Shown: positions 27,570 to 62,987 of the stretch, in pieces
Position numbering within the stretch: position 1 is the stretch's first letter
Layout of the letters: the number at the start of each line of letters is the position of its first letter
IMG/VR virus record: IMGVR_UViG_3300023174_000034
From: a virus
Taxonomy: Duplodnaviria > Heunggongvirae > Uroviricota > Caudoviricetes
Length of the DNA stretch: 64,000 nucleotides
Strand: one strand, 5' to 3'
The notes under the pieces: model-generated
What the model was told of the DNA's origin: nothing
Databases searched by the model: none
The model's input: the letters and a program-made list of their open reading frames with translations, nothing else
Position numbers and translations under genes: made by a program

Positions 27570-28128
27570 AAAACACAATCCACAACTAGCAGAAAGAGCC
27601 ACATTTCAAGCGGCAGTAGAAACCACAGCAGAGATAATGGCTCGGCTGTTGGAGAAATTCACTCGAGAAGAACTTACTAGACTATCAGCATCAAAAGAAT
27701 TTGTTTGCGTAGATCTAGCACGTAATTTATACAGAGTAGGACGGTTTAATCTACAAAAAGTTTCAGCAACATGTTGGATTGTAAAAGACTCAAACGGCAG
27801 GGTCATACACGAATTTTACAACTGCCAAGCGGCAGTGTTTTACTGCTTGTACGAAAGCAGATCATTGTTCAAGAGGGCACACGAATTTCTACAAACAGAT
27901 ATAGAACTAGGGCGCACTCACCATGAAGTCAACGAATATCTGGCACATCTACGTACGGCCATGCAGAACAAAGATAGCTTCAAGCAAGATCTCTACCTAG
28001 CAAGACTAAGCTGGGTAAAACCCAGGCTAGAACAGCTGGAAAGTAATCTACAGAAAAGTATTACCAGTGCTAAATACAGTAAAGTTTGGGAAACTAACAA
28101 CCATGAAACTGCAAGAACTCGCAACTAG
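27511..28128 (+). CDS. hypothetical protein
   Basis: 205-aa ORF; start uncertain. Confidence 0.6.
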   Translation: MYCIERIKMGASHTTKKRRKKHNPQLAERATFQAAVETTAEIMARLLEKFTREELTRLSASKEFVCVDLARNLYRVGRFNLQKVSATCWIVKDSNGRVIHEFYNCQAAVFYCLYESRSLFKRAHEFLQTDIELGRTHHEVNEYLAHLRTAMQNKDSFKQDLYLARLSWVKPRLEQLESNLQKSITSAKYSKVWETNNHETARTRN

Positions 28129-29860: not shown

Positions 29861-30238
29861 ATGGCATATTCAGACAAAGTAATTGATCATTATGAAAACC
29901 CACGCAATGTGGGCAAGCTAGAAATTGACGACACAGTCGGCACAGGCATGGTAGGTGCACCTGCCTGCGGCGATGTTATGAAACTACAGATAAAGGTGCA
30001 AGATGGCATTATCACGGACGCAAAATTCAAAACATACGGTTGCGGATCAGCAATCGCCAGCTCAAGTCTTGTTACAGAGTGGGTCAAGGGAAAAACGCTT
30101 GACGAAGCGGGAAAGATTACTAATTCACGAATTGCTGAAGAACTTGCCCTCCCACCGGTTAAAATACATTGTAGCATTCTTGCAGAAGATGCTATTAAAG
30201 CGGCTGTAAATGATTACCGTAACAAGCACAGCCAGTAA
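29861..30238 (+). CDS. iscU: Fe-S cluster scaffold IscU
   Basis: YSDKVIDHYENPRNVG, GAPACGDVM, FKTYGCGSAIAS, LPPVKIHCS. Confidence 0.95.
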   Translation: MAYSDKVIDHYENPRNVGKLEIDDTVGTGMVGAPACGDVMKLQIKVQDGIITDAKFKTYGCGSAIASSSLVTEWVKGKTLDEAGKITNSRIAEELALPPVKIHCSILAEDAIKAAVNDYRNKHSQ

Positions 30239-30530
30239 AAAGATCCTGGATAGTATTGCCAAACGAGGCCATGGCATTGGCATCAAAGTTGGCATACGAA
30301 CCACTGGTTGCTCTGGACTGGCTTATGTGCTAGAATATGTTGACGAAACATGGGAAGGATCAACATCTTTTCCGCAGGATGGATTTAGCATTATCATTGA
30401 CACAAGAGATCTTGCCATCGTAGAAAATATAGAAATAGACTATGTTCGTCAGGGCCTTAACGAAGGCTTTGAATTCAATAACCCTTTGGAACGTGACCGT
30501 TGTGGTTGCGGAGAATCTTTTAGAATATGA
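30210..30530 (+). CDS. iscA: Fe-S cluster A-type carrier IscA
   Basis: TTGCSGLAY...FNNP...CGCGESF. Confidence 0.92.
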   Translation: MITVTSTASKKILDSIAKRGHGIGIKVGIRTTGCSGLAYVLEYVDETWEGSTSFPQDGFSIIIDTRDLAIVENIEIDYVRQGLNEGFEFNNPLERDRCGCGESFRI

Positions 30531-46087: not shown

Positions 46088-46433
46088 CTTTATCACACCA
46101 CCATCAGCAGTCACTGACACATTTCCATCAGTGCTGATCATTGATGCTGACTGGAACGATATAGACAGCGTGGCCATCTGGTGCAAGACTGCATCAGTCA
46201 GTCTCAACATCTACTTGTACAGTGATATTTTTCTAAATGAAACATGGCTGGCCGGCGCCATAAACAAATCTGACAACATAATTATGAACATTGCATCCAG
46301 CGCAGTTGATCACATCAAGCGAGATCTTATCAAAGCACCTAATGTTTGGTACTATGGTGACAAGACATTTTTAGGCAACGATCAAAAGATCGCAGGTGTG
46401 ATGGATTGGTTCGTGACACGATATGGCAACTGA
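46068..46433 (+). CDS. hypothetical protein
   Basis: Coupled ORF. Confidence 0.65.
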   Translation: MAEPYSNFITPPSAVTDTFPSVLIIDADWNDIDSVAIWCKTASVSLNIYLYSDIFLNETWLAGAINKSDNIIMNIASSAVDHIKRDLIKAPNVWYYGDKTFLGNDQKIAGVMDWFVTRYGN

Positions 46434-47631
46434 TCCACATGTACATCATATGAGTTGTGACTTCTGCGGCAAAGCCCGTAGCGAAGTCCACAAGCTCATT
46501 GTAGCAAACGAAGCCGCTATTTGTAATGAATGTATTGAGCTGTGTGCCAATATTCTAGACAAAGAGCGCATTGACAATATCAAAACAGACCGCAAGGTAA
46601 ACCGAGTGCTGGATCCGCAAAAGGTCAAACGGTATCTGGACAACTATGTGATTGGCCAAGACATCGCAAAGATGGCACTGAGTGTTGCAGTGGTCAATCA
46701 CTACAAGCGAGTGTTCTTCAAACCCAAAATTGAATTAGAAAAAAGCAATCTGTTGATGTTTGGTCCCAGTGGCTGTGGCAAAACTTTGCTGGCCAAAAGT
46801 GTAGCACGTTATCTCAATGTGCCTTTTGTTATTGCAGATGCCACTACCCTTACCCAGGCTGGTTATGTGGGCGAAGACGTCGAAAGCCTGATAGGGCGAC
46901 TGCTTTCTGAAGCAGATAATGACATAGAACGATGCCAGCAGGGCATTGTTTTCATTGACGAGATAGACAAGATCAGCCGCAAAGGCGAAAGTGCAAGCAT
47001 CACTCGTGATGTATCAGGCGAAGGTGTACAGCAAGCACTACTCAAAATGGTAGAAGGCACCAAGTGCCGTGTCACAATGAATGGTAGCAAAAAACATCCA
47101 GCAATTGAAACAGTGGAAATTGACACCAGCAATATTTTATTCATTGCAGGTGGCGCATTTGATGGCTTGGAAAAAGTAATCGAACAGCGACAGCGTGGTT
47201 CTGGTATTGGGTTTGTCTCCAACAAAGAGCCCACCAGCGTGACACAGCATGTGACACCTGAGGACTTTATGAAGTATGGGATGATTCCAGAGTTCGTAGG
47301 ACGCTTTCCAATCTCAGTGCAACTAGAACCTTTGACATTGGAAGATTACACCAGGGTCCTAATAGAGCCAAAGAACAGTTTGTTGGAACAGATGCAATTT
47401 TATTTTCACGCAGACGATATTGCATTGACATTTGAAGACGCGGCAATCCTGGCCATAGCACAGCAAGCAATAGAACTGGGTATTGGAGCACGTGGTTTGA
47501 AGACAGTAATGGAGCACACAATGATGCCCATGATGTACAGTATCCATACCATGAAAAAGAACGGCATCAAAGAGTTATCCATTGATGAGTCAATGATAAC
47601 TAATTATACATCTATATCAGGAACCACATGA
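46423..47631 (+). CDS. clpX: ClpX AAA+ unfoldase
   Basis: Zn domain CDFC..CNEC, YVIGQ, GPSGCGKT, GYVGEDVE, IDEIDKI, RDVSGEGVQQALLK, IGF loop. Confidence 0.93.
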   Translation: MATDPHVHHMSCDFCGKARSEVHKLIVANEAAICNECIELCANILDKERIDNIKTDRKVNRVLDPQKVKRYLDNYVIGQDIAKMALSVAVVNHYKRVFFKPKIELEKSNLLMFGPSGCGKTLLAKSVARYLNVPFVIADATTLTQAGYVGEDVESLIGRLLSEADNDIERCQQGIVFIDEIDKISRKGESASITRDVSGEGVQQALLKMVEGTKCRVTMNGSKKHPAIETVEIDTSNILFIAGGAFDGLEKVIEQRQRGSGIGFVSNKEPTSVTQHVTPEDFMKYGMIPEFVGRFPISVQLEPLTLEDYTRVLIEPKNSLLEQMQFYFHADDIALTFEDAAILAIAQQAIELGIGARGLKTVMEHTMMPMMYSIHTMKKNGIKELSIDESMITNYTSISGTT

Positions 47632-47864
47632 GATACAAGCCAGAAAAAATCCAAGGATTAAAAGTAGAAGTAGTCAACGACCAAGTTGAAAAAGCCCTGC
47701 GTAAGTTCAAGAAAAAAGTAACCGAAAGCGGCCTGCTACAAAGTTTGCGTGAACGTGAGTTCTACGAGAAACCAACAACTGCTCGTAAAAAGGCCAAAAG
47801 CCAGGCCAAGCGCCGTTGGCAGAAAAAACTCCAAGCGGAAAGTTTGCCCAAAAAGATGTACTAA
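47628..47864 (+). CDS. rpsU: 30S ribosomal protein bS21
   Basis: EKALRKFKKK...LREREFYEKPTTARKK. Confidence 0.9.
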   Translation: MRYKPEKIQGLKVEVVNDQVEKALRKFKKKVTESGLLQSLREREFYEKPTTARKKAKSQAKRRWQKKLQAESLPKKMY

Positions 47865-47897: not shown

Positions 47898-47956
47898 TAC
47901 ATGTAGGACGCCTTCGGGGTCTTACAGACATACTTGCTTAATAAAGGAGAAAACTT

Positions 47957-48409
47957 ATGTCAACTCATCTATATCTAGACCTACCTGCATTGCAACGACA
48001 ATTTGTGGGCTTCGATCAACTGTTCGAAGATATCAATCGCGCATTCGCCGCGACCAAACAAGACAACTATCCCCCGCACAACATCGTACGTATTGGTGAG
48101 AACCGTTACGTGATCGAAATGGCTGTGGCTGGCTTCTTGGAAAATGAATTGGACGTAGAAACTGTCACAAACGGTTACGGTCAAAACATTCTCACCATCC
48201 GCGGAGAACGTCTTCGTGACGAAGATGCAGATCGCCAATACCTACATCGAGGTCTGGCAACTCGCAACTTTGAGCGTAGCTTTCCATTAAATGAAAATGT
48301 GGAAATTTCGGCCGCTACTGTGGCCAATGGCATTCTGACAATCACACTGGATCACAAGATTCCGGAAACGCAGAAAGCCAAGAAGGTTGCAATTACTTTC
48401 TCTAAGTAG
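47957..48409 (+). CDS. small heat-shock protein Hsp20 (IbpA-like)
   Basis: NYPPHNI...IEMAVAGF...YLHRGLATRNFERSF...NGILTI. Confidence 0.92.
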   Translation: MSTHLYLDLPALQRQFVGFDQLFEDINRAFAATKQDNYPPHNIVRIGENRYVIEMAVAGFLENELDVETVTNGYGQNILTIRGERLRDEDADRQYLHRGLATRNFERSFPLNENVEISAATVANGILTITLDHKIPETQKAKKVAITFSK

Positions 48410-52080: not shown

Positions 52081-52671
52081 CTAGTGCGGTCCTAAGGGTG
52101 TTCTGTTCAGTCGAGCTTGTATAATCTCAACTGTTTTGTTACTTATAACAACTTCATAGTGGTTCAATGGTAATTCAACCAATTCCATTTCTCTGCAATA
52201 GCGCATACTCTTGAGCGTGACCACACCATCGTTTTCTTCAACCATCCAGGGACTCTGTCCTCGAGTGGTCACAACATTGGTCCATGTGTCTCTAGGAAAC
52301 CTAAGTTCTTTGACTCGCGCCATGGGCTCGCAGTTGGGTCCGATATCTCGCATGAGTCTGCTGAAAGGTAAAAAATATCTAGCATAGTCTGCTTCTCTAC
52401 TGCCACCGTAGGGTGTGCTAAGGGTAACAGCGCCCAGTACTTTGTGTCGGAAATAATCTGCTAGGTGTAGTGCGTATATGCCGCCCAGGCTATGTGCCAC
52501 AAAGAATATTTTTTCTACATCGTCCAGACGTTCTTTCATGGCGCTTAGATTGTTTGCGAATCCATCGGCACTGTCGTAATCAATTGCCAAATCGGGTCGC
52601 TTGATGTGTTCTCGAATATGAACAAAACTTTCACTGGTAGCACTGGCACCATGGATGTAAACAACAGTCAT
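52081..52671 (-). CDS. alpha/beta hydrolase
   Basis: YIHGASA, AHSLGG nucleophile elbow, LSTPYGGS, NDGVV, NH. Confidence 0.85.
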   Translation of the reverse strand: MTVVYIHGASATSESFVHIREHIKRPDLAIDYDSADGFANNLSAMKERLDDVEKIFFVAHSLGGIYALHLADYFRHKVLGAVTLSTPYGGSREADYARYFLPFSRLMRDIGPNCEPMARVKELRFPRDTWTNVVTTRGQSPWMVEENDGVVTLKSMRYCREMELVELPLNHYEVVISNKTVEIIQARLNRTPLGPH

Positions 52672-54939: not shown

Positions 54940-55068
54940 ATGTTCGATTATCTTGTTACAGCTCTTATGTGTGTTGCAGGCTTAGTTATGCTCTGCGCCA
55001 TAATTATTGGCTTTGTCAAACTAATCGATCTTTTCTTAAACACTTTCAGCGATCGAGACCCATGGTAA
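54940..55068 (+). CDS. 42-aa membrane peptide (not in ORF track)
   Basis: MFDYLVTALMCVAGLVMLCAIIIGFV...; 6 nt after TTGACA-18-TATACT (54904-54933). Confidence 0.55.
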   Translation: MFDYLVTALMCVAGLVMLCAIIIGFVKLIDLFLNTFSDRDPW

Positions 55069-56099
55069 CTAAACGAATTGGCTTTGCATGTAAATGGCTC
55101 AATGATCCTAGCGAATGCGGAGGCATGAAGGTGAATGCAGTGGATCGTGAACTAAACGGACGCTCAACCACCATGCGCTGGCTCCGTGAGCACAAAGACG
55201 AAGCCGAACAACGCCAGTGGGACATCATGAACCACAATGCTGTGGCGGCTGTGAAAATGATTGAGCGTGTGGCCACACTGCCTGCAGAACGTAGAATGGT
55301 GCGTCTAGGTTCAGAAATGCTACAGGGCTATACCGAACCGTCGTGGATTGACTGGTGGCAACGACAAGAGATACAAGATCACTGTGCAAAAATCTTTGCA
55401 CCCATTGGCGAAACTGCCAGACGACTAGATGTACGTCTAAGTTTCCACCCAGGCCAGTTTTGCGTACTGGCCAGTGAGAGTGATGAGATTGTGGAACGCA
55501 GTATTTTAGAATTTGAATATCACGTTGATATGGCACGGTGGATGGGCTACGGTGCCACATGGCATGACCATGGATTCAAGATCAACGTGCATTTGTCTGG
55601 TAAAGGTGGTCCAGACAAGTTCCTTAAAACTCTAGGCAAACTCACGCCCGAAGCCAGGAATCTTATTACCATCGAGAATGATGAGATGACAAATGGATTG
55701 GACTGTACTCTTGCTGTTGGTGAACATGTGGCTCTTGTTCTTGACCTTCACCATCATTGGATCAACTCGAATGGCGATTACATCCTGGCAACGGATGATC
55801 GTGTTCGCAGGGTTATTGACAGCTGGCGTGGTACTCGTCCTGCTTTGCATTACAGCGTTAGTCGCGAAGATATTCTTGTGGATCATTGCACCCGAACTGC
55901 TCCCGATATTGTTGGACTCCTTGATGGAGGCTATAAAAAGCAAAAGCTCAGGGCACACAGTGACTTCTATTGGAATGATGCTGTGAATGAGTGGGCTGTG
56001 CAACACTTGACCTGGGGCGACATCATGTGCGAAGCCAAGGGCAAAAATCTAGCCAGTGAGCAAATATACACACTGGCTAAAGAGCTATCAATTATTTAG
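55062..56099 (+). CDS. uvsE: UV damage endonuclease UvsE/UvdE
   Basis: RIGFACK, VRLGS, RLSFHPGQF, NVHLSG, TIENDE, VLDLHHH, HSDF, CEAKGK. Confidence 0.9.
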   Translation: MVTKRIGFACKWLNDPSECGGMKVNAVDRELNGRSTTMRWLREHKDEAEQRQWDIMNHNAVAAVKMIERVATLPAERRMVRLGSEMLQGYTEPSWIDWWQRQEIQDHCAKIFAPIGETARRLDVRLSFHPGQFCVLASESDEIVERSILEFEYHVDMARWMGYGATWHDHGFKINVHLSGKGGPDKFLKTLGKLTPEARNLITIENDEMTNGLDCTLAVGEHVALVLDLHHHWINSNGDYILATDDRVRRVIDSWRGTRPALHYSVSREDILVDHCTRTAPDIVGLLDGGYKKQKLRAHSDFYWNDAVNEWAVQHLTWGDIMCEAKGKNLASEQIYTLAKELSII

Positions 56100-56106
56100 G
56101 AATCAA

Positions 56107-57207
56107 ATGAGTTATTTATTTACTAGTGAATCAGTGTCCGAAGGACATCCAGACAAAGTAGCAGACGCAATCAGTGACGCAATTCTTGATCTTGTTATGA
56201 GCAAGCAAGACCCTGCACTACGTTGTGCCTGCGAGACCCTGGTTACTACCAACCGTGTTATTGTGGCTGGAGAGTACAAAGGTATTCTACACTCAGAAGA
56301 AGTTGACGTTGCAGTACGCAAAGTTATCAAAGATATTGGGTATGAGCAAACAGGATTTGACTGGCGCACACTTGAAATCACCAACCTGCTACACGGTCAA
56401 AGCGCAGACATTGCACTGGGTACAGACACGTTTGGCGCTGGTGACCAAGGACTTATGTTTGGTTATGCTTGCAACGAAACATCTAATCACATGCCCAGTG
56501 CCATCTACTACAGTCACAAGATTGTGGAACACCTGACACAGGTACGTAAACAAGGCAAGTTACCTTGGCTTGGCCCAGATGCCAAGAGCCAAGTTACATT
56601 TGAATACAACGACGATGCCACACCCCGGCGTATTGCCAAAGTTGTGTGCTCAACACAACACAGTGATGATATGTCCATTGATGTGGTACGTGCCGCTGTA
56701 GAAGAAATTATCCGTCAAGTCTTACCAATGGAGTTTATAGATGATACCACTGAGTTTCATATTAACCCTACTGGCCGTTTTGTTATTGGTGGCCCTGATG
56801 GGGATACAGGGCTTACCGGCAGGAAAATTATTGTTGATACTTATGGCGGTTATAGCCCCCACGGTGGTGGCGCTTTTAGCGGTAAAGATCCTACTAAGGT
56901 AGATCGCTCTGCCGCATACATGATGCGCTACATTGCCAAGAACATTGTGGCAACGGGTCGCGCCAATTGGGCCACTTGCCAAATCAGTTATGCCATTGGA
57001 CTGGCACAACCCATGAGCTTCTACATTGAAGTTGCAGATGCAGAACTAGGTCGTGAACTTACTAAATGGGTGCAAGAAAACGTAGATCTCACACCAATGG
57101 GTATTATCAAACGTTTTGATCTGTTCCGTCCTATCTACAGTTCAACTACCAACTATGGACACTTTGGTAAAGCCGATTTACCATGGGAACGAATTGATTT
57201 GTTCTAA
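56107..57207 (+). CDS. metK: S-adenosylmethionine synthetase
   Basis: FTSESVSEGHPDK, GAGDQG, INPTGRFVIGGP.GD.GLTGRKII, GGGAFSGKD. Confidence 0.97.
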   Translation: MSYLFTSESVSEGHPDKVADAISDAILDLVMSKQDPALRCACETLVTTNRVIVAGEYKGILHSEEVDVAVRKVIKDIGYEQTGFDWRTLEITNLLHGQSADIALGTDTFGAGDQGLMFGYACNETSNHMPSAIYYSHKIVEHLTQVRKQGKLPWLGPDAKSQVTFEYNDDATPRRIAKVVCSTQHSDDMSIDVVRAAVEEIIRQVLPMEFIDDTTEFHINPTGRFVIGGPDGDTGLTGRKIIVDTYGGYSPHGGGAFSGKDPTKVDRSAAYMMRYIAKNIVATGRANWATCQISYAIGLAQPMSFYIEVADAELGRELTKWVQENVDLTPMGIIKRFDLFRPIYSSTTNYGHFGKADLPWERIDLF

Positions 57208-57212
57208 GCCAT

Positions 57213-57240
57213 AAAAAAAGCCCCAGAAGGGGCTTTTTTA
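57213..57240. terminator. bidirectional terminator
   Basis: A7-GCCCC-AGAA-GGGGC-T6 between convergent genes. Confidence 0.85.
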
Positions 57241-57251
57241 TTGTGTGCTAA

Positions 57252-57563
57252 TCATTTCTTAGCAACGACCTTGACTGCTTTTCTTGGAGCTGCCTTTTTA
57301 GGGGCGGCTTTTTTAGCGGCTGGTTGTTTGGCAGGTGCTACCGTTTTCTTCTTTACGGCTGCTGGGGCCTTTGGGGCACGAGCAGGTTTAGAAGCAGTTA
57401 CGGAAGTCACCTCCTTTGCGGGCTCAGCCACTGGTGTGGACTCCTGAGCAGGTGCTTCGACCTTGTATGCAACCGCAGTCTCTACGACCGTGGCGCTTGG
57501 TTGGAATGTTCTGTACAGAGCATAACCCAAACCAATGATAATAATACCAATGATAATTTCCAT
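57252..57563 (-). CDS. membrane-anchored protein with histone-H1-like Lys/Ala/Pro tail
   Basis: N-terminal TM; KKAAPKKAAPRKAVKVVAKK; AAGGAG RBS; minus-strand TAAATA at 57597-57592. Confidence 0.7.
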   Translation of the reverse strand: MEIIIGIIIIGLGYALYRTFQPSATVVETAVAYKVEAPAQESTPVAEPAKEVTSVTASKPARAPKAPAAVKKKTVAPAKQPAAKKAAPKKAAPRKAVKVVAKK

Positions 57564-57661
57564 GATGATCTCCTTCGAAGTATGGTAGAAATATTTAGTG
57601 GGTATATTTGGGCAGGTAAAATTAGTGTATGGACACTAAACATCAGTAGAAACCATAGTAA

Positions 57662-57678
57662 ATGTTGCTCTGCAACAT
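57662..57678. promoter_or_regulatory. palindromic operator candidate ATGTTGC-N3-GCAACAT (PhaR-box-like)
   Basis: Perfect 7-bp inverted repeat abutting TAAATA; second copy at 61795-61811. Confidence 0.5.
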
Positions 57679-57758
57679 AAATAAGTGTACAATAGAAACA
57701 TGATGCCTGTAGTAGGGTCATAAAGTAAATTGGAACATTCGTCTATAAGGAGAAAAAC

Positions 57759-58043
57759 ATGTTCACAGCAGATACATTCATCGACTCAATCCAAACAGCT
57801 AAAAAAGAAGCTGTTAAAACTTTGTTCGGCAAGAACGAAGCAGTTGCAAAAAGCCTAACTGAATTTGTGGATGCCCAAACAGCATACACCAAAGGTGCGG
57901 TCAAGGCAGGTACTGACGTTGCTACCAAGTTGGCCAGCGAAACAGTCAAGTACACACAAGAAGCCGCTAAATTTGATTACGCAAAGCAGTTCACTGATGT
58001 GTTTGGTTCTTTTACCAAAGCATTTGAAACTAGCAAAAAGTAA
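57759..58043 (+). CDS. phasin-like amphipathic helical protein
   Basis: 94 aa, Ala/Lys/Thr-rich and helical (FVDAQTAYTKGAVKA); strong RBS; own promoter and terminator. Confidence 0.5.
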   Translation: MFTADTFIDSIQTAKKEAVKTLFGKNEAVAKSLTEFVDAQTAYTKGAVKAGTDVATKLASETVKYTQEAAKFDYAKQFTDVFGSFTKAFETSKK

Positions 58044-58058
58044 ACAAAAGTACTATCT

Positions 58059-58085
58059 AAAACCCCCAAAGTTGGGGGTTTTTTT
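58059..58085 (+). terminator. Rho-independent terminator
   Basis: AAAACCCCCAA-AG-TTGGGGGTTTTTTT. Confidence 0.75.
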
Positions 58086-58146
58086 ACGGTTGACAACTAA
58101 TGAGACATGTTGTAAACTAGTGGCATTATTTCATAAAAGGACTCTT

Positions 58147-58326
58147 ATGTTTAAGTTCGGTTTCATACTCGGTCTCATCCTTGTTGTAATTGCAATTGGC
58201 CCAATCCTCACAATCTGGGCTTGGAACGTGCTATTCGGAGCAGGACACCCAATTCCTTATACTTTGGAAACCTGGGGTGCCACTGTTATCCTGGGCGGTT
58301 TGGTTACTGCACGAGTAAGCAAATAA
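58147..58326 (+). CDS. small membrane protein
   Basis: Two TM segments; promoter TTGACA-17-TAAACT at 58090-58118; start re-set. Confidence 0.65.
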   Translation: MFKFGFILGLILVVIAIGPILTIWAWNVLFGAGHPIPYTLETWGATVILGGLVTARVSK

Positions 58327-58365
58327 ACGGTTGACAAAAAAATCCATTTCCTGCATAATTACTAC

Positions 58366-58527
58366 ATGATGAAAAAGAACACGCCATTAAAGATCGAAAT
58401 GCCGCGCCAGCGCACTCGCGCTCACATGGTGCTGTTCTGCACTGATTCTCCGTTCAAGCCCAAAGTGGTGGAAAACAAGAAGGCTTATCGACGTCAGCAC
58501 AAGCACGTCAAAACTCAGTTAGACTAA
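58366..58527 (+). CDS. 53-aa basic ArfA-like protein (not in ORF track)
   Basis: VLFCTDSPFKPKVVENKKAYRRQHKH; 6 nt behind TTGACA-17-CATAAT (58331-58359). Confidence 0.5.
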   Translation: MMKKNTPLKIEMPRQRTRAHMVLFCTDSPFKPKVVENKKAYRRQHKHVKTQLD

Positions 58528-58536
58528 AGGGATACC

Positions 58537-58689
58537 ATGTCAACACTTGAGCAGGCCGCAAACACGGCAATCTTTCAGCGCCAAATGCCTTTCCACAGGG
58601 CAGTGCGTTTCGTGGTCCAGGAAACTGGTGTAGCGGTAGAAAAAGCCGAGCAAGCACTTCGCGGTGTAATGCTGTGGTACCGCGGGTAA
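58537..58689 (+). CDS. 50-aa hypothetical protein (not in ORF track)
   Basis: MSTLEQAANTAIFQRQMPF...; AAGGGA RBS. Confidence 0.55.
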   Translation: MSTLEQAANTAIFQRQMPFHRAVRFVVQETGVAVEKAEQALRGVMLWYRG

Positions 58690-58922
58690 TACTGGCCGTT
58701 GTTGTTCTACTTGCAGGCTGTGCAACCAGTCCGCAGGTGGACGACTTGTCAACCATGAAACCCGACTGCACCAATGCGGTGTTTCAGGTCAAGTCATTGG
58801 AACGAGAGTTGGCACATCGCGGGTACGATGCTAGTAATAGCGATTTCGAACGCAGGTATGTCAACAATGCAAAAAACATCATCTGGACGCTGAGGAGCAC
58901 ATGTTTACAAAGAATACAATAA
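58674..58922 (+). CDS. lipoprotein
   Basis: Lipobox LAGC; start uncertain. Confidence 0.6.
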   Translation: MVPRVILAVVVLLAGCATSPQVDDLSTMKPDCTNAVFQVKSLERELAHRGYDASNSDFERRYVNNAKNIIWTLRSTCLQRIQ

Positions 58923-59158
58923 TGATTCTGTTTGTTACTTGTTCCACGCTGGTGGGTTGTGGAACACTGGAACGAACACCAGTCATGACTGTGCAAGAAG
59001 CAGACAACTATCAAGTCAACTGCAACATGAAAAACGAACAACTTGAGTTCCTGTCCAGATATGTGGCAAGCAATAAGAAAACTGTATACCAGACAGATGC
59101 TTTGTCGCAGGCCGTGATCAAACGTAAGATTAACTATCTCCACAGTTGGTGCAAATGA
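58901..59158 (+). CDS. lipoprotein
   Basis: Lipobox LVGC. Confidence 0.6.
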   Translation: MFTKNTIMILFVTCSTLVGCGTLERTPVMTVQEADNYQVNCNMKNEQLEFLSRYVASNKKTVYQTDALSQAVIKRKINYLHSWCK

Positions 59159-59748
59159 AAACCCGTGCCTTGCTACTTGTCGCTATACTTGCACAACCTG
59201 CGTTTGCAGAGTGCTACCTACGGTCTAGCACACTCAATCAGTTCAAGGGCACAATTGAACGTACCGCAGACGTGGCCCGTGATGTTGTGGTCATGCCACC
59301 AGATCGGATGCAATGTACAGTGACCTTTCGTGTGATGTTGGACGGAGTCTGGCATACTGCACAAGGCCAGGCCATTGGTTCGGATTCAACAAGTGAAAAC
59401 CAATTGTGTGCCCAGGCGCAGGACATTGGTCGGTCGAGACTGATGCAAAAGATTGATGGTAGCCAAACCAGCGTAAGCCAAGAAATGGTTTGTACAGATC
59501 AGGACATTCCACAGATCCGAAGCCGCCCTGTCAAGATCGGTGACCTAGTGCGTGAAAGCGAAATGGCTCCGCATTGGGATTTGAGCAAACGAATCAGCTT
59601 TGCCCATCGTGGTATGGAATGCCGTTGGTTCATGGAAACCTTGCCCTATGGTGTGAGTGGCATGGTCCAAAGCATTGGCATGATGTGCAAATTGGATAAT
59701 AACCGTTGGCGCATCACGGACAAGTGGATCAATTCGATTGACAAGTAA
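59155..59748 (+). CDS. secreted Cys-containing protein
   Basis: Signal peptide ending PAFA/EC. Confidence 0.65.
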   Translation: MKTRALLLVAILAQPAFAECYLRSSTLNQFKGTIERTADVARDVVVMPPDRMQCTVTFRVMLDGVWHTAQGQAIGSDSTSENQLCAQAQDIGRSRLMQKIDGSQTSVSQEMVCTDQDIPQIRSRPVKIGDLVRESEMAPHWDLSKRISFAHRGMECRWFMETLPYGVSGMVQSIGMMCKLDNNRWRITDKWINSIDK

Positions 59749-59800
59749 TTGCCATTTCGTTTATAATTAACTATCGTAACTTTGTACCGAAAGGTGTTGT

Positions 59801-59923
59801 ATGAAAACTGTGTTTGTGTTGTTAGTAACTCTGGGCCTTACTGCCTGCTCAACTGTGGCAGGAATGGGTAAGGATCTTACATCCGGTGCCGAATGGACCA
59901 AAGAAAAGATAGGTGGAAAATAA
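59801..59923 (+). CDS. entericidin EcnA/B-like lipopeptide (not in ORF track)
   Basis: MKTVFVLLVTLGLTAC-STVAGMGKDLTSGAE; promoter TTGACA-18-TATAAT at 59738-59767. Confidence 0.7.
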   Translation: MKTVFVLLVTLGLTACSTVAGMGKDLTSGAEWTKEKIGGK

Positions 59924-60501
59924 TGAAACGTATTCTAATTGCTAGTGCTGTTCTTGCCGTGCTAGCCGGCTGTAGTTCAACTTCTGATCCGTATCAAAAG
60001 CGAGCAGATGCGGAGCAGGAAAAGCGTGAGAAGTATGCAGAACGAGCCATTGACAAGGCTCCCAACTGGATGACCAAATTGCCCGAAAGCAAGAGTGCAG
60101 TGTATGCCAGTGCAACTGCTACCAGCCCAGACTTTGCCATGGCAGACGAAAAAGCCAAGGTAATTGCGTTTGGTAAGATCTGTATGGCCGCTGGCGGCGA
60201 AGTGGACAAGCAGAGCCGTGTGTTCCGACAAGATGTGGGTGAAACATCCGCAGAGAACAGTGAAATGGCCATTCGCGCCATGTGCCGTAAGGTTGATGTA
60301 ACTGGCGCAGAGCTAGTGGAAGTCAAGCGGGTGAGCGAAGGCAGTCGTTTCCGTAGTTATGTGCTGGTAGCCCTGCCCATGGGCGAAGCCAACATACTGC
60401 GCCGTGAAAAAGTGGACGAAGCTGTTCGCAAAACCACAGCAGGTCGCGCACGTGAAGCTTTTGAAGAAATGGACAAACCTGTTGTTCAACCTGTGCAATA
60501 A
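59923..60501 (+). CDS. lipoprotein (LPP20-like)
   Basis: MKRILIASAVLAVLAGC lipobox; TAATG coupling. Confidence 0.65.
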   Translation: MKRILIASAVLAVLAGCSSTSDPYQKRADAEQEKREKYAERAIDKAPNWMTKLPESKSAVYASATATSPDFAMADEKAKVIAFGKICMAAGGEVDKQSRVFRQDVGETSAENSEMAIRAMCRKVDVTGAELVEVKRVSEGSRFRSYVLVALPMGEANILRREKVDEAVRKTTAGRAREAFEEMDKPVVQPVQ

Positions 60502-60576
60502 ACTGCTCAGTTAACGATTCAAGCTGTAGTTTAAGCCCTCCCTAGTGTATGTAAATACGCTAGCGGAGGGTTTCTT

Positions 60577-61083
60577 ATGGCAAGACCAAATTTGATTTCG
60601 CAATATATGAATGCTGACTTACCAAGCATCAGTGTTCAAAAACGACTACCCTTTCGACCGCACCTGGAACAGGCGGATGCACTTTATCGTGTGATCAATC
60701 GCCATATTTTTGACAATACCCTGACTCAGCCCGAAATCGATCTTTATCAAATGCAAAAAACCTGGGGACTGTGTCACTGGTTGGATCAACGTCAGAAAAG
60801 TGCCAGCTGGGGCAAGCAAGGCACATGGTGTCGCATTAGTCTAAATGACAAATGGTTTTGCCCACAGTGGTTTTGCACCACACTTGCACACGAAATGGTG
60901 CATCAGTATCAATGGGATATAGAACGATTTGATCAAACGGGTTTTAATATCTGTGAAAACTCTGGCGCACATGGACCTAGCTTCTTTGCCTGGCGCGACC
61001 GTTTTGCCCACTGGGGCATTGATCTCAAAACAGCACATGGACAACGACGTTGGTTCAGGCATCAGGACTTTAATAAATGTTGA
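60577..61083 (+). CDS. SprT-like zinc metalloprotease
   Basis: TLAHEMVHQYQ...HGPSF..W. Confidence 0.8.
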   Translation: MARPNLISQYMNADLPSISVQKRLPFRPHLEQADALYRVINRHIFDNTLTQPEIDLYQMQKTWGLCHWLDQRQKSASWGKQGTWCRISLNDKWFCPQWFCTTLAHEMVHQYQWDIERFDQTGFNICENSGAHGPSFFAWRDRFAHWGIDLKTAHGQRRWFRHQDFNKC

Positions 61084-61144
61084 CAAAGGCTCTATAGTTG
61101 TCTATAATTGACTATAATTGTATATAATTCAACTAGGAGCATCC

Positions 61145-61768
61145 ATGCCAAATTTTGTACCTTCAGTACTAGAAAAGACTTCCAACGGCGAGCGTGTTTA
61201 CGACATCTACAGCCGATTACTCAAAGACCGCATTGTCATGCTGGACACAGAGGTCAGCGAACACTCTGCCAGCCTTGTTATTGCCCAAATGCTGTTCTTA
61301 GAAAGCGAAAGTCCAAGTGCAGACATCCTGTTCTACATCAACAGCCCAGGTGGTATCGTCACTGCTGGACTGGCAATCTATGACACCATGCAGTTTATCA
61401 GGCCTGATGTTTCTACCATCGTACTTGGCCAAGCCTGTTCCATGGGCAGTTTCCTTGCACAAGCAGGTGCACCGGGCAAACGACTGGTATTGCCAGAATC
61501 ACGCACGATGATTCACCGTGTGAGTTCCGGTACTCCGGGCACACGAGGTAGCGTACACGTACAGGAACTACAGTTTGAAGACACCAAACGCTCGTTTGAA
61601 GAAAGTGTTCGAATCAACGAACGCCTGACACAGCTATATGTCAAGCACAATACCGCTGGCAAGACCTATGATGATCTGTATAGTGCAATGAAATTTGACA
61701 CTTTCTTGAGCGCACAGGAAGCAGTGGCATACGGACTTGCAGACCAGGTGGTTGAGAAACGTCCTTGA
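61145..61768 (+). CDS. clpP: ClpP protease subunit
   Basis: [45 protein letters not shown]; promoter at 61080-61108. Confidence 0.93.
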
Positions 61769-61794
61769 TTAGTGATTGCTCACTAGCAATTTCT

Positions 61795-61811
61795 ATGTTG
61801 CATTGCAACAT
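61795..61811. promoter_or_regulatory. palindromic operator candidate ATGTTGC-N3-GCAACAT (PhaR-box-like)
   Basis: Same arms as the 57662 box; TAAATA at 61819. Confidence 0.5.
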
Positions 61812-61874
61812 GTAGTGGTAAATACTATTAGTAGAAACCACTACATGTTCTACACAACAACAAAGGAATTGACT

Positions 61875-62042
61875 ATGATGCAAAACATCCTAGAAAGACT
61901 TGCAGAAATGTTTCCAAAACAAAACTACCAAAGCAAGTTGGAGCAGTACATAAACAGCAAGCACCCACAAAGCGCGGCCGATATTGAGCATTGGATTCGC
62001 CGCTACGATCAAGAAGCATCTAAATGGAGTTGGTCACTATGA
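61875..62042 (+). CDS. small protein (DUF3563-like, tentative)
   Basis: LERLAEMFPKQNYQSKLEQYI...ADIEHWIRRYD; start re-set. Confidence 0.5.
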   Translation: MMQNILERLAEMFPKQNYQSKLEQYINSKHPQSAADIEHWIRRYDQEASKWSWSL

Positions 62043-62137
62043 AACGTCTAGCACATTGGATTTGGAACAGCATGGTCGCTGTTGCAGAAGCAAGACACGC
62101 ATATCACAGGAAACATGGTTTCAGTGCGTGGTATTAA
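62039..62137 (+). CDS. 32-aa peptide
   Basis: ATGA coupling; MKRLAHWIWNSMVAVAEARHAY. Confidence 0.4.
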   Translation: MKRLAHWIWNSMVAVAEARHAYHRKHGFSAWY

Positions 62138-62276
62138 AATGACCCACCATGGTGAAAAAATTGCTGGATTCATGATCATAGCAATGATTATCTATCTGTT
62201 TATAGCACAATAATCGTCATGGGCTAACCTGCAAGCCATTTGCACCTTGCAATAAATACACAATCAGGGTGCAAAC

Positions 62277-62987
62277 ATGCGATTAAATGAATTTGATATA
62301 ACACCAGCTTTGGTGTTCCACGACCAGCTAAATCCAGCTCTATGGGAGGGTAACTTACTGCGTCCGGACGTGCAGGCCAAGCTGTTGAAAATTGCCGACG
62401 ACTTCCAAGACTTCATTGGCGTGAGCATCTACGATGTGCTAGATATCACTATATCAGGATCCAATGCAGCCTTCACTTACACACCTAGATCAGACATCGA
62501 TCTACACCTTGTGGTGATGATTCCTGGCGCACATGAAGAAGAACTGCGTGAATTATTTGATGCAAAGAAATACCAGTATAACGATACCTTTGACTTCAAG
62601 ATCCATGGATACGATGTAGAACTGTATGTGCAAGATGCTGAGCAAGAGCATCACAGCATGGGTATCTACAGCGTGAAAAACAACAAATGGTTGAGCGAGC
62701 CAAAACAGATTCGTGCCACAATCGACGACATCTCAGTTGAAAACAGATATCGCACTTACATTTCTCGTATACAGTCAGCCACAGCAGAAGATGACATGGA
62801 CAAGAGCCAAAAGCTATGGGACCACCTTAGAGGCATGCGACAAGCTGGTCTAGCACAGGGCGGCGAATTCTCGCCTGAGAATGTTACATTCAAATTATTA
62901 CGTGCCGAAGGCTATTTGCAAGACCTACGTGACCACATGGTAGCATTGAAAACCCAGGCCATGAGCATGGAGGGTGCAAATGCGTGA
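62277..62987 (+). CDS. Pol-beta-superfamily nucleotidyltransferase
   Basis: ISGSNA...SDIDLHLVV...DVELY; MRLNEF leader; TAAATA at 62253. Confidence 0.7.
   Translation: MRLNEFDITPALVFHDQLNPALWEGNLLRPDVQAKLLKIADDFQDFIGVSIYDVLDITISGSNAAFTYTPRSDIDLHLVVMIPGAHEEELRELFDAKKYQYNDTFDFKIHGYDVELYVQDAEQEHHSMGIYSVKNNKWLSEPKQIRATIDDISVENRYRTYISRIQSATAEDDMDKSQKLWDHLRGMRQAGLAQGGEFSPENVTFKLLRAEGYLQDLRDHMVALKTQAMSMEGANA

Follow-up and report, generated by a model that had tools for sequence, protein, structure and literature searches.

Putative host-type PhaR operators at a phasin-like gene and a micro-protein operon of a large phage

In a 64,000-nucleotide stretch of DNA from a Caudoviricetes phage (IMG/VR record IMGVR_UViG_3300023174_000034; the whole stretch is called the window here), two intergenic promoters carry palindromes of the type bound by PhaR, the bacterial regulator that is titrated off DNA by granules of polyhydroxybutyrate (PHB). 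Promoter 1 precedes a gene for a small phasin-like protein (57759) and promoter 2 an operon of micro-proteins (from 61875). Judging from the sequence comparisons below, we consider it probable that these host-type operators (boxes A1 and A2) tune both units to host PHB, with additional inputs through two other motifs, boxes B and C. The PhaR-phasin circuit itself is known in bacteria; new here are two further motifs with host counterparts, shared by both promoters, and a gene-order link between the two units. Coordinates are given in Table 1.

PhaR-type palindromes at both promoters

A preliminary description of the window had noted ATGTTGC-N3-GCAACAT at two intergenic sites, each at or just before TAAATA. 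Both are exact; TAAATA starts at 57678, overlapping A1, and at 61819, 7 nt after A2. There is no third match in the window with up to two mismatches allowed. With two mismatches the pattern is not rare (0.74 expected in the window), while the exact 17-mer palindrome occurred once in 300 shuffled windows. Because the palindrome pattern was chosen after the fact, we used an independent matrix made only from the boxes of 30 phasin promoters of Comamonadaceae (the family that includes Diaphorobacter). Over the 64,000 positions, A2 (22.8 bits) and A1 (21.8 bits) were the top two sites, the next reaching 11.4 bits, and the host median was 24.5 bits; two sites of at least 21.8 bits were found in 0/200 shuffled windows.

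Both boxes fit the footprinted PhbF consensus of Herbaspirillum seropedicae, TG[N]TGC[N]3GCAA (PMC3206438), and agree with the PhaR motifs of Ralstonia eutropha and Sinorhizobium meliloti, barring one spacer base of A1; the spacer is ATT (RNY) in A2 and TCT in A1, the reverse complement of which occurs in a relative (G007). The RNY spacer (TGCRNYGCA) is kept in 48 of 51 phage boxes while its letters vary. The PhaR (AniA) regulon of S. meliloti has a YGCRNYGCR core with AT-rich arms, and its targets include phasins, depolymerases and non-PHB genes (PMC12542648). Those sites lie on an alphaproteobacterial chromosome, whereas the phage sites fit betaproteobacterial flanks (TGT...ACA).

Genome-wide tests were run on relatives of the window phage, with box A counted at 12 bits or more on the host matrix. 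The unpublished genome G863 (locus L253) was excluded from all motif counts; it and G919, likewise unpublished, appear in raw tallies only and support no claim. The preliminary description had proposed looking for the boxes in relatives, and box A does recur there: it lies upstream of 18/26 close homologs of the phasin-like gene (30/69 of all homologs) and of 16/54 micro-operons, compared with 0.07-0.5% of control stretches. It was found before 0/28 clpP and 0/5 metK homologs and, as matches, before 3/20 Hsp20 homologs. In complete relatives, the strong intergenic box A is the one at the phasin-like gene. Neither PhaR domain was found in five complete relatives, and a host regulator is hence the likely binder; PhaR is encoded in 5/5 Comamonadaceae genomes tested, and a phasin match was present in 41/41. 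Consensus fit, conservation, gene specificity in relatives and the lack of a detectable phage PhaR thus support A1 and A2 as PhaR-type operators, with host PhaR as their likely ligand. The host itself is probably a PHB-storing Burkholderiales bacterium, going by the motif matches, and functional PhaR control of both promoters appears rather likely to us.

A sigma70-type -35/-10 pair that the preliminary description had missed overlaps box A1. Relatives without box A carry a TTGAC- or TTGAT-type -35 in the same register. Since A1 holds the -35-like TTGCTC and the boxless relatives keep a -35 in register, promoter 1 probably combines early use by host sigma70 with late use by the phage; a protein bound on A1 would hinder both kinds of transcription. 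At promoter 2, TAAATA is the only evident promoter element. We take TAAATA to be a late promoter by analogy with T4-like phages and from its many copies before genes. It starts 8 nt from the centre of box A in 30/51 relatives, these promoters being predicted rather than mapped.

Two relatives carry further PhaR-type boxes of 13.5-14.5 bits 3' of the micro-operon, before a cupin-like gene (L131:3377) or an alpha/beta hydrolase gene (L121:3365; 13.5 bits at the hydrolase). A tiny open reading frame (ORF) with a PYTVDEL motif stands just 5' of the phasin-like gene in a second phage group (L036-L042, L045, L054-L059). In L036-L042, tandem PhaR-type boxes lie upstream, and in L044 a DUF3563-like ORF ends there.

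Table 1. Features of the two promoter regions and of neighbouring genes in the window
Feature	Position	Strand	Description
Box C1	57622..57639		TAG-N10-CTA palindrome in the region from which the PAKK and phasin-like genes diverge; geometry as in host phasin promoters
Box B1	57643..57659	+	AGTAGAAACCA core directly 5' of A1; 17.2 bits, rank 2 by the matrix from relatives' micro-operon promoters
Box A1	57662..57678		PhaR/PhbF-type palindrome; overlaps a -35 of sigma70 type and, by one base, the start of TAAATA; rank 2 of 64 kb
Composite promoter	57665..57693	+	-35 TTGCTC, 17 nt, -10 TACAAT (8/12 consensus matches); late-type TAAATA 57678-57683 in the spacer; use inferred
Two-hairpin 5' leader	57701..57753	+	ROSE_3-like in relatives, degenerate in the window
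Phasin-like gene	57759..58043	+	94 aa (amino acids), all-helical, amphipathic, distantly phasin-like; core gene of the phage family
Hairpin and T run	58058..58086	+	Likely intrinsic terminator, read from the sequence directly; not listed by the terminator scan
PAKK gene	57252..57563	-	N-terminal hydrophobic helix, Pro/Ala/Lys-rich tail; late-type TAAATA 57592-57597 (- strand)
Box C2	61769..61786		Second TAG-N10-CTA copy, just after the ClpP stop, 8 nt before A2
Box A2	61795..61811		PhaR/PhbF-type palindrome with RNY spacer; rank 1
Box B2	61812..61844		Inverted pair, with a reverse copy at 61812-61828 over TAAATA and a forward copy at 61828-61844; degenerate likeness to the palindrome at bacterial DUF3563 genes
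DUF3563-like micro-protein	61875..62042	+	55 aa; weak DUF3563 match
Second micro-protein	62039..62137	+	32 aa, amphipathic, helical; ATGA overlap with ORF 61875
Third micro-ORF	62139..62213	+	24-aa hydrophobic peptide
Alpha/beta serine hydrolase	52081..52671	-	S61, D148, H171 triad; accessory; no PhaR box in the window

The phasin-like protein and its leader

The 57759 product has the small, all-helical, amphipathic and Ala-rich make-up of phasins, with four helices and hydrophobic moments mostly of 0.3-0.57 that resemble those of host PhaP, traits that are not specific to phasins. Phasin_2 is matched by 66/99 members of its family, far ahead of any other Pfam family (best member E 4.9e-5), and the Atlas lead (0.88) points to a cluster with 13% Phasin_2. 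The family is one of phages, with 186 close and 374 distant matches, and its Atlas clusters are viral; 7/7 near-complete relatives have the gene. Weak sequence signal and promoter context together make 57759 distantly phasin-like, which falls short of a proven phasin. The terminator-like hairpin behind it suggests that the gene is monocistronic.

The leader of this gene family folds into two hairpins, of which hairpin 1 covaries (with the structure of one member as reference, 92% of cells are paired and 7/10 pairs show double changes; 0/500 shuffles), and a motif pairing with the Shine-Dalgarno sequence was found by pattern in 25/28 leaders. Like ROSE_3 (RF02523), it has a second hairpin with a bulged G that pairs with the Shine-Dalgarno sequence. 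ROSE_3 matches the leader of relative L002 at 36.5 bits (E 2.4e-6), below the gathering score of 43, and the gene behind this leader is phasin-like, not a small heat-shock gene. The window's own phasin-like leader gave no ROSE_3 match, and a search of the window at Rfam gathering scores gave no matches. At 47902-47962, a ROSE_3-like leader of the same design (21.5 bits, E 0.011) lies behind TAAATA at the phage's Hsp20 gene (47957).

It is possible, though on the unlikely side, that PhaR control is real while the products are not granule proteins. PhaR would then gauge carbon or stress, and 57759 would be a chaperone-like or membrane-associated helical protein, co-regulated with heat-shock functions. 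The weak phasin homology and the leader design common to 57759 and Hsp20 favour this, PhaR regulons reach beyond PHB (PMC12542648) and some phasins are chaperone-like (PMC5658603). It is opposed by the lead of Phasin_2 among the Pfam matches and by the A and C motifs, whose arrangement as in host phasin promoters suggests descent from a phasin gene. Whether the 94-residue product acts at granule or lipid surfaces we judge, from its sequence, to be an even call.

Three observations concern relatives. In one clade (L139, L146, L174, L128, L159, L181), the cassette continues behind the phasin-like gene with a conserved protein of ~90 residues, ~600-1500 nt past the small ORF; its NKNGYEIR motif is not present in the window. 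Some relatives have fatty-acid-desaturase-like genes close to the phasin-like gene or immediately 5' of it (L101:756-1466, L190:1114-2765). The contig L190 (JBKACM010000140.1), from an Alphaproteobacteria metagenome-assembled genome, reads as phage DNA with a phasin-like gene, box A, a box C-like site and the leader; as the sole 'bacterial' homolog it was rejected, since it looks like a phage contig inside that assembly.

Boxes B and C, the micro-protein operon and the hydrolase

Box C was also missed in the preliminary description; the window has TAGTG-N6-CACTA at 57623 and 61770 and nowhere else. Of the phage phasin-like genes, 17/26 have TAG-N10-CTA upstream (controls, 1.4%), as do 12/30 Comamonadaceae phasin genes (controls, 2/180; other spacings, 0-1). 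In these 12 of the host promoters L308-L337, the palindrome, YTAG-N10-CTAR, lies just upstream of the distal PhaR box. In complete relatives, the exact C site belongs to the phasin-like promoter, and one relative resembles the window in having a near-exact copy at each of the two promoters. No description of the site was found in the literature searched, and the accessible part of an R. eutropha pull-down study gives no motif (PMC11332829). Several of the Comamonadaceae phasin promoters with TAG-N10-CTA seem to face a divergent histone-deacetylase-family-like gene. In the phages, the divergent PAKK gene stands next to the phasin-like gene in 18/26 relatives, and box C tracks it, being present in 15/18 relatives with the gene and 2/8 without (Fisher p 0.008). 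A bidirectional terminator-like hairpin (57213-57240) separates the convergent PAKK gene from metK.

The preliminary description had also reported AGTAGAAACCA as common to both regions, and it is found at 57645 and 61830, with a third exact copy at 27615 inside an ORF; a reverse AGTAGAAACCA-type copy over the TAAATA of promoter 2 had escaped notice. Among relatives, this box precedes 55/56 micro-operons. Its form is fixed and asymmetric, and each genome has one or two copies, almost all of them at the micro-operon. Since it appears in either orientation and as one or two copies around TAAATA, we read it as a DNA site, an operator separate from the PhaR site and more conserved than box A. Two other readings were rejected: an RNA hairpin, given that the box can face either way and lie on either side of TAAATA, and a part of the PhaR site, as it precedes 0/26 phasin-like genes of relatives and is present without box A.

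Box B has a look-alike in bacteria. YTAGGGWWWWCCCTAR lies upstream of 54/61 bacterial DUF3563 genes (1/366 controls), and the AGGG-W4-CCCT palindrome abuts the -10 of these genes (L203-L245, L249-L277, L455-L470), in one promoter (L205) in almost the phage form. Scored with a matrix of phage B boxes, host DUF3563 promoters have a median of 6.0, against -3.6 for both shuffles and host phasin promoters, and the best match is in register in 42/61. Genome-wide, the host palindrome occurs at 33 sites in 4/5 genomes and at none in controls. The genes after it, as read from their sequences, encode cytochrome bo and bd oxidase subunits, peroxiredoxin, glutamate dehydrogenase and CoA transferase. Because the B-like site thus also precedes respiratory and carbon genes, its regulator is probably of a redox or carbon-status type. 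The host palindrome presumably resembles sites of the FixJ family (FixJ/AccR/BphQ-type). AccR/BphQ, a redox and carbon-status system of betaproteobacteria (PMC6456745), is a candidate for the regulator at this host site.

The two tiny helical ORFs that had been described behind the second box are both present, and a third, missed earlier, follows them. An ATGA-coupled ORF follows the DUF3563-like ORF in 52/56 relatives, and the 24-residue hydrophobic peptide is found in 5/56. ORF 61875 is weakly DUF3563-like: PF12086 gave no match to the protein itself and matched 3/66 family members (best E 1.6e-4), hhalign aligned the family with DUF3563 over 50 columns (E 0.007, probability 5%), and the Atlas lead to DUF3563 scored 0.87 (188 features). 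It is similar in length and helical pattern to bacterial DUF3563 of Burkholderiales, whose upstream palindrome resembles box B; the phage version has diverged, is coupled to one or two micro-proteins and has a fixed asymmetric variant of the operator. Few bacterial DUF3563 genes have a PhaR box (3/33 at 12 bits or more, 3/198 in controls), and no paper on DUF3563 function was found in the literature searched. In 19/54 relatives, the micro-operon is followed within 1.5 kb by a phasin-like gene. This link between the two units does not depend on the boxes and supports their forming one module. Directly 3' of the micro-operon, at 62277-62987 with TAAATA at 62253, the window encodes a nucleotidyltransferase-like protein (weak PF01909, phrog_36119).

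All three palindromes might instead serve a regulator that the phage itself encodes, with a micro-protein or PAKK acting on its own promoter, or mark a phage promoter class, their likeness to PhaR sites being due to chance or ancestry. This would explain the fixed form and near-exclusive position of box B and its poor fit to the host matrix, as well as the link between box C and the PAKK gene, and a -35 hexamer coincides with the left half of box A. Box A, however, fits host PhaR sites over 17-21 bp, including an RNY spacer that a -35 does not need; the other sigma70 promoters in the window are plain TTGACA types, and no DNA-binding domain was detected in the micro-proteins. We therefore hold this explanation to be improbable overall and likeliest for boxes B and C.

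The preliminary description had tentatively named the alpha/beta hydrolase at 52081 a depolymerase, which we do not uphold. In a full granule-mobilising module, it would join the phasin-like, PAKK and micro-proteins in coating and degrading host PHB to feed phage replication. Its catalytic triad is intact and invariant in 111 sequences, and in 8/54 relatives its gene follows the micro-operon at a distance of up to 1.5 kb, in L139 and L146 between the DUF3563-like and phasin-like genes; L121, as noted, has a box upstream of it. On the other side, no box precedes it here (no window site besides A1 and A2 exceeds 11.4 bits) or in 9/10 relatives. It has no Pfam depolymerase match, its family matches being to the generic Abhydrolase only, and its fold matches (Z up to 17.1, rmsd (root-mean-square deviation) 2.4, 178 aligned) are tied among generic alpha/beta hydrolases; no PHB depolymerase is listed among the top structural matches, which does not exclude one. 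A search of 301 Pseudomonadota genomes at E 1e-10 gave no homolog. Both the full module and a PHB-related role for this enzyme, judged from its sequence, are in our view quite unlikely.

Least probable is a reading of the sites as functionless leftovers of gene capture from a bacterium. In its favour, box A is patchy among relatives, and host phasin and DUF3563 genes carry the same motifs. Against it, the proteins have diverged beyond clear recognition while the motifs stay near consensus, with spacer changes within RNY and positions moved relative to the promoter, a pattern that needs selection.

The phage itself is large and T4-like, with structural and replication genes, Hsp20 and ClpP, and its relatives have genomes of 315-374 kb. 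By ClpP, the closest cultured phages are Pseudomonas phages PA5oct/Paride and Sinorhizobium phage Phosso; homologs of 57759 or 61875 were not found in the cultured phages searched, the nearest, Paride and Phosso, being without the phasin-like gene. Elsewhere in the window, short ORFs cluster at 58080-60501 behind canonical TTGACA sigma70 promoters (58090, 58331, 59738), several with lipoprotein-type signal peptides, and are probable early host-envelope genes. Host-type auxiliary genes at 29861-30530, 46423-47864 and 54969-57207 have translations that read as IscU/IscA, ClpX, ribosomal protein S21, ultraviolet-damage endonuclease and S-adenosylmethionine synthetase.

Proposed regulation and its meaning

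Under PhaR control of both units, host PhaR would sit on box A when PHB is low, at promoter 1 over the -35 and the beginning of the late-type TAAATA, at promoter 2 beside TAAATA, so that transcription would be damped. Granules of PHB would titrate PhaR off the DNA and derepress the phasin-like gene and the micro-operon. Boxes C and B would add further inputs, probably from the regulators of host phasin and host DUF3563 promoters. The 94-residue product, translated under a heat-shock-type leader, might be an amphipathic protein of granule or lipid surfaces with a phasin-like or chaperone-like role. The preliminary description had expression occurring only when the cell holds granules. This overstates the case, as box A has been lost from many relatives and PhaR can also activate (PMC12849132).

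A number of observations weigh against PhaR-tuned expression of a phasin-like module. The phasin-like gene lacks box A in 8/26 close relatives, and some 70% of micro-operons are without it (30% have it). Host promoters have two PhaR boxes, before the -35 and at the start site, in contrast to the single phage box. The units had been called late genes wired to host PhaR, of which the PhaR-type operators, the absence of a detectable phage PhaR and a TAAATA at both promoters stand; promoter 1, however, looks like a sigma70 and TAAATA composite. Of the proposed check of 57759 against phasin profiles and structures, the part that held is Phasin_2 as commonest match in the family; 57759 itself scores 18.5 bits (E 0.0023) against PF09361, below the Pfam cut-off of 24.9, an NCBIfam search gave no match, hhalign of the family with Comamonadaceae PhaP was not significant (E 0.15-0.17), and a fold search with a low-confidence model (predicted local distance difference test, pLDDT, 63) returned only generic helical matches, none significant. 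The window's B sites rank only 67-271 of 64 kb on the host DUF3563 matrix, and the exact phage form is not enriched over controls in Burkholderiales genomes. The hydrolase is absent from 7/7 near-complete relatives and present in 6/30 records. Finally, the counts over relatives reflect common ancestry and are not independent events.

The nearest known system is the PhaR/PhbF-phaP1 circuit of Burkholderiales (PMC12849132, PMC3206438), in which the same palindrome stands at the promoter of a gene whose small helical product has Phasin_2 similarity and which, in Comamonadaceae, has the same upstream TAG-N10-CTA. The phage differs in having the site without phaR in its genome and in placing it over a -35 and a late-type TAAATA. 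Its protein is half the length of PhaP1 and not alignable with it, its leader is ROSE-like and a PAKK gene diverges from it. Auxiliary genes related to polyhydroxyalkanoates (PHA) have been reported in phages, namely phaC, phbB and fadJ (PMC12013262) and a prophage depolymerase (PMC13317609). These are enzymes found by annotation, and the trait in common is that phages touch PHA metabolism; the word 'phasin' is absent from both papers, and in their accessible parts no PhaR operator is described. No papers on phasins or PhaR sites in phages were found in the literature searched.

In cyanophages, pho boxes before pstS and phoA let a host transcription factor gate phage auxiliary genes by nutrient state. 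By comparison, the signal here would be a stored carbon polymer, sensed through granule titration, possibly with two host inputs and temperature added. A more ambitious version, which we think doubtful, has three host regulators (PhaR, a redox/carbon response regulator and a phasin-promoter factor) and temperature jointly timing a granule-coating protein and micro-proteins, captured as a mini-regulon by a widespread family of freshwater phages of ~350 kb that take over the PHB reserve, some lineages with a hydrolase. In that version, the shared motifs would also point to a second, so far undescribed operator at Comamonadaceae phasin genes and give DUF3563 a place in this network.

The tuning of both units by host PhaR could be tested without culturing the phage, as PhaR, E. 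coli reporters and PHB-producing strains exist. The comparison also brings two predictions for hosts: Comamonadaceae phasin genes should have a conserved TAG-N10-CTA beside their PhaR boxes, and DUF3563 genes should nearly all be preceded by a palindrome that stands before respiratory genes too. If a phage taps the granule sensor of its host, a storage polymer would control viral genes, of which we found no case in the literature searched. PHB is the main carbon reserve of many freshwater betaproteobacteria. The outcome of infection would then be linked to the carbon status of the host.

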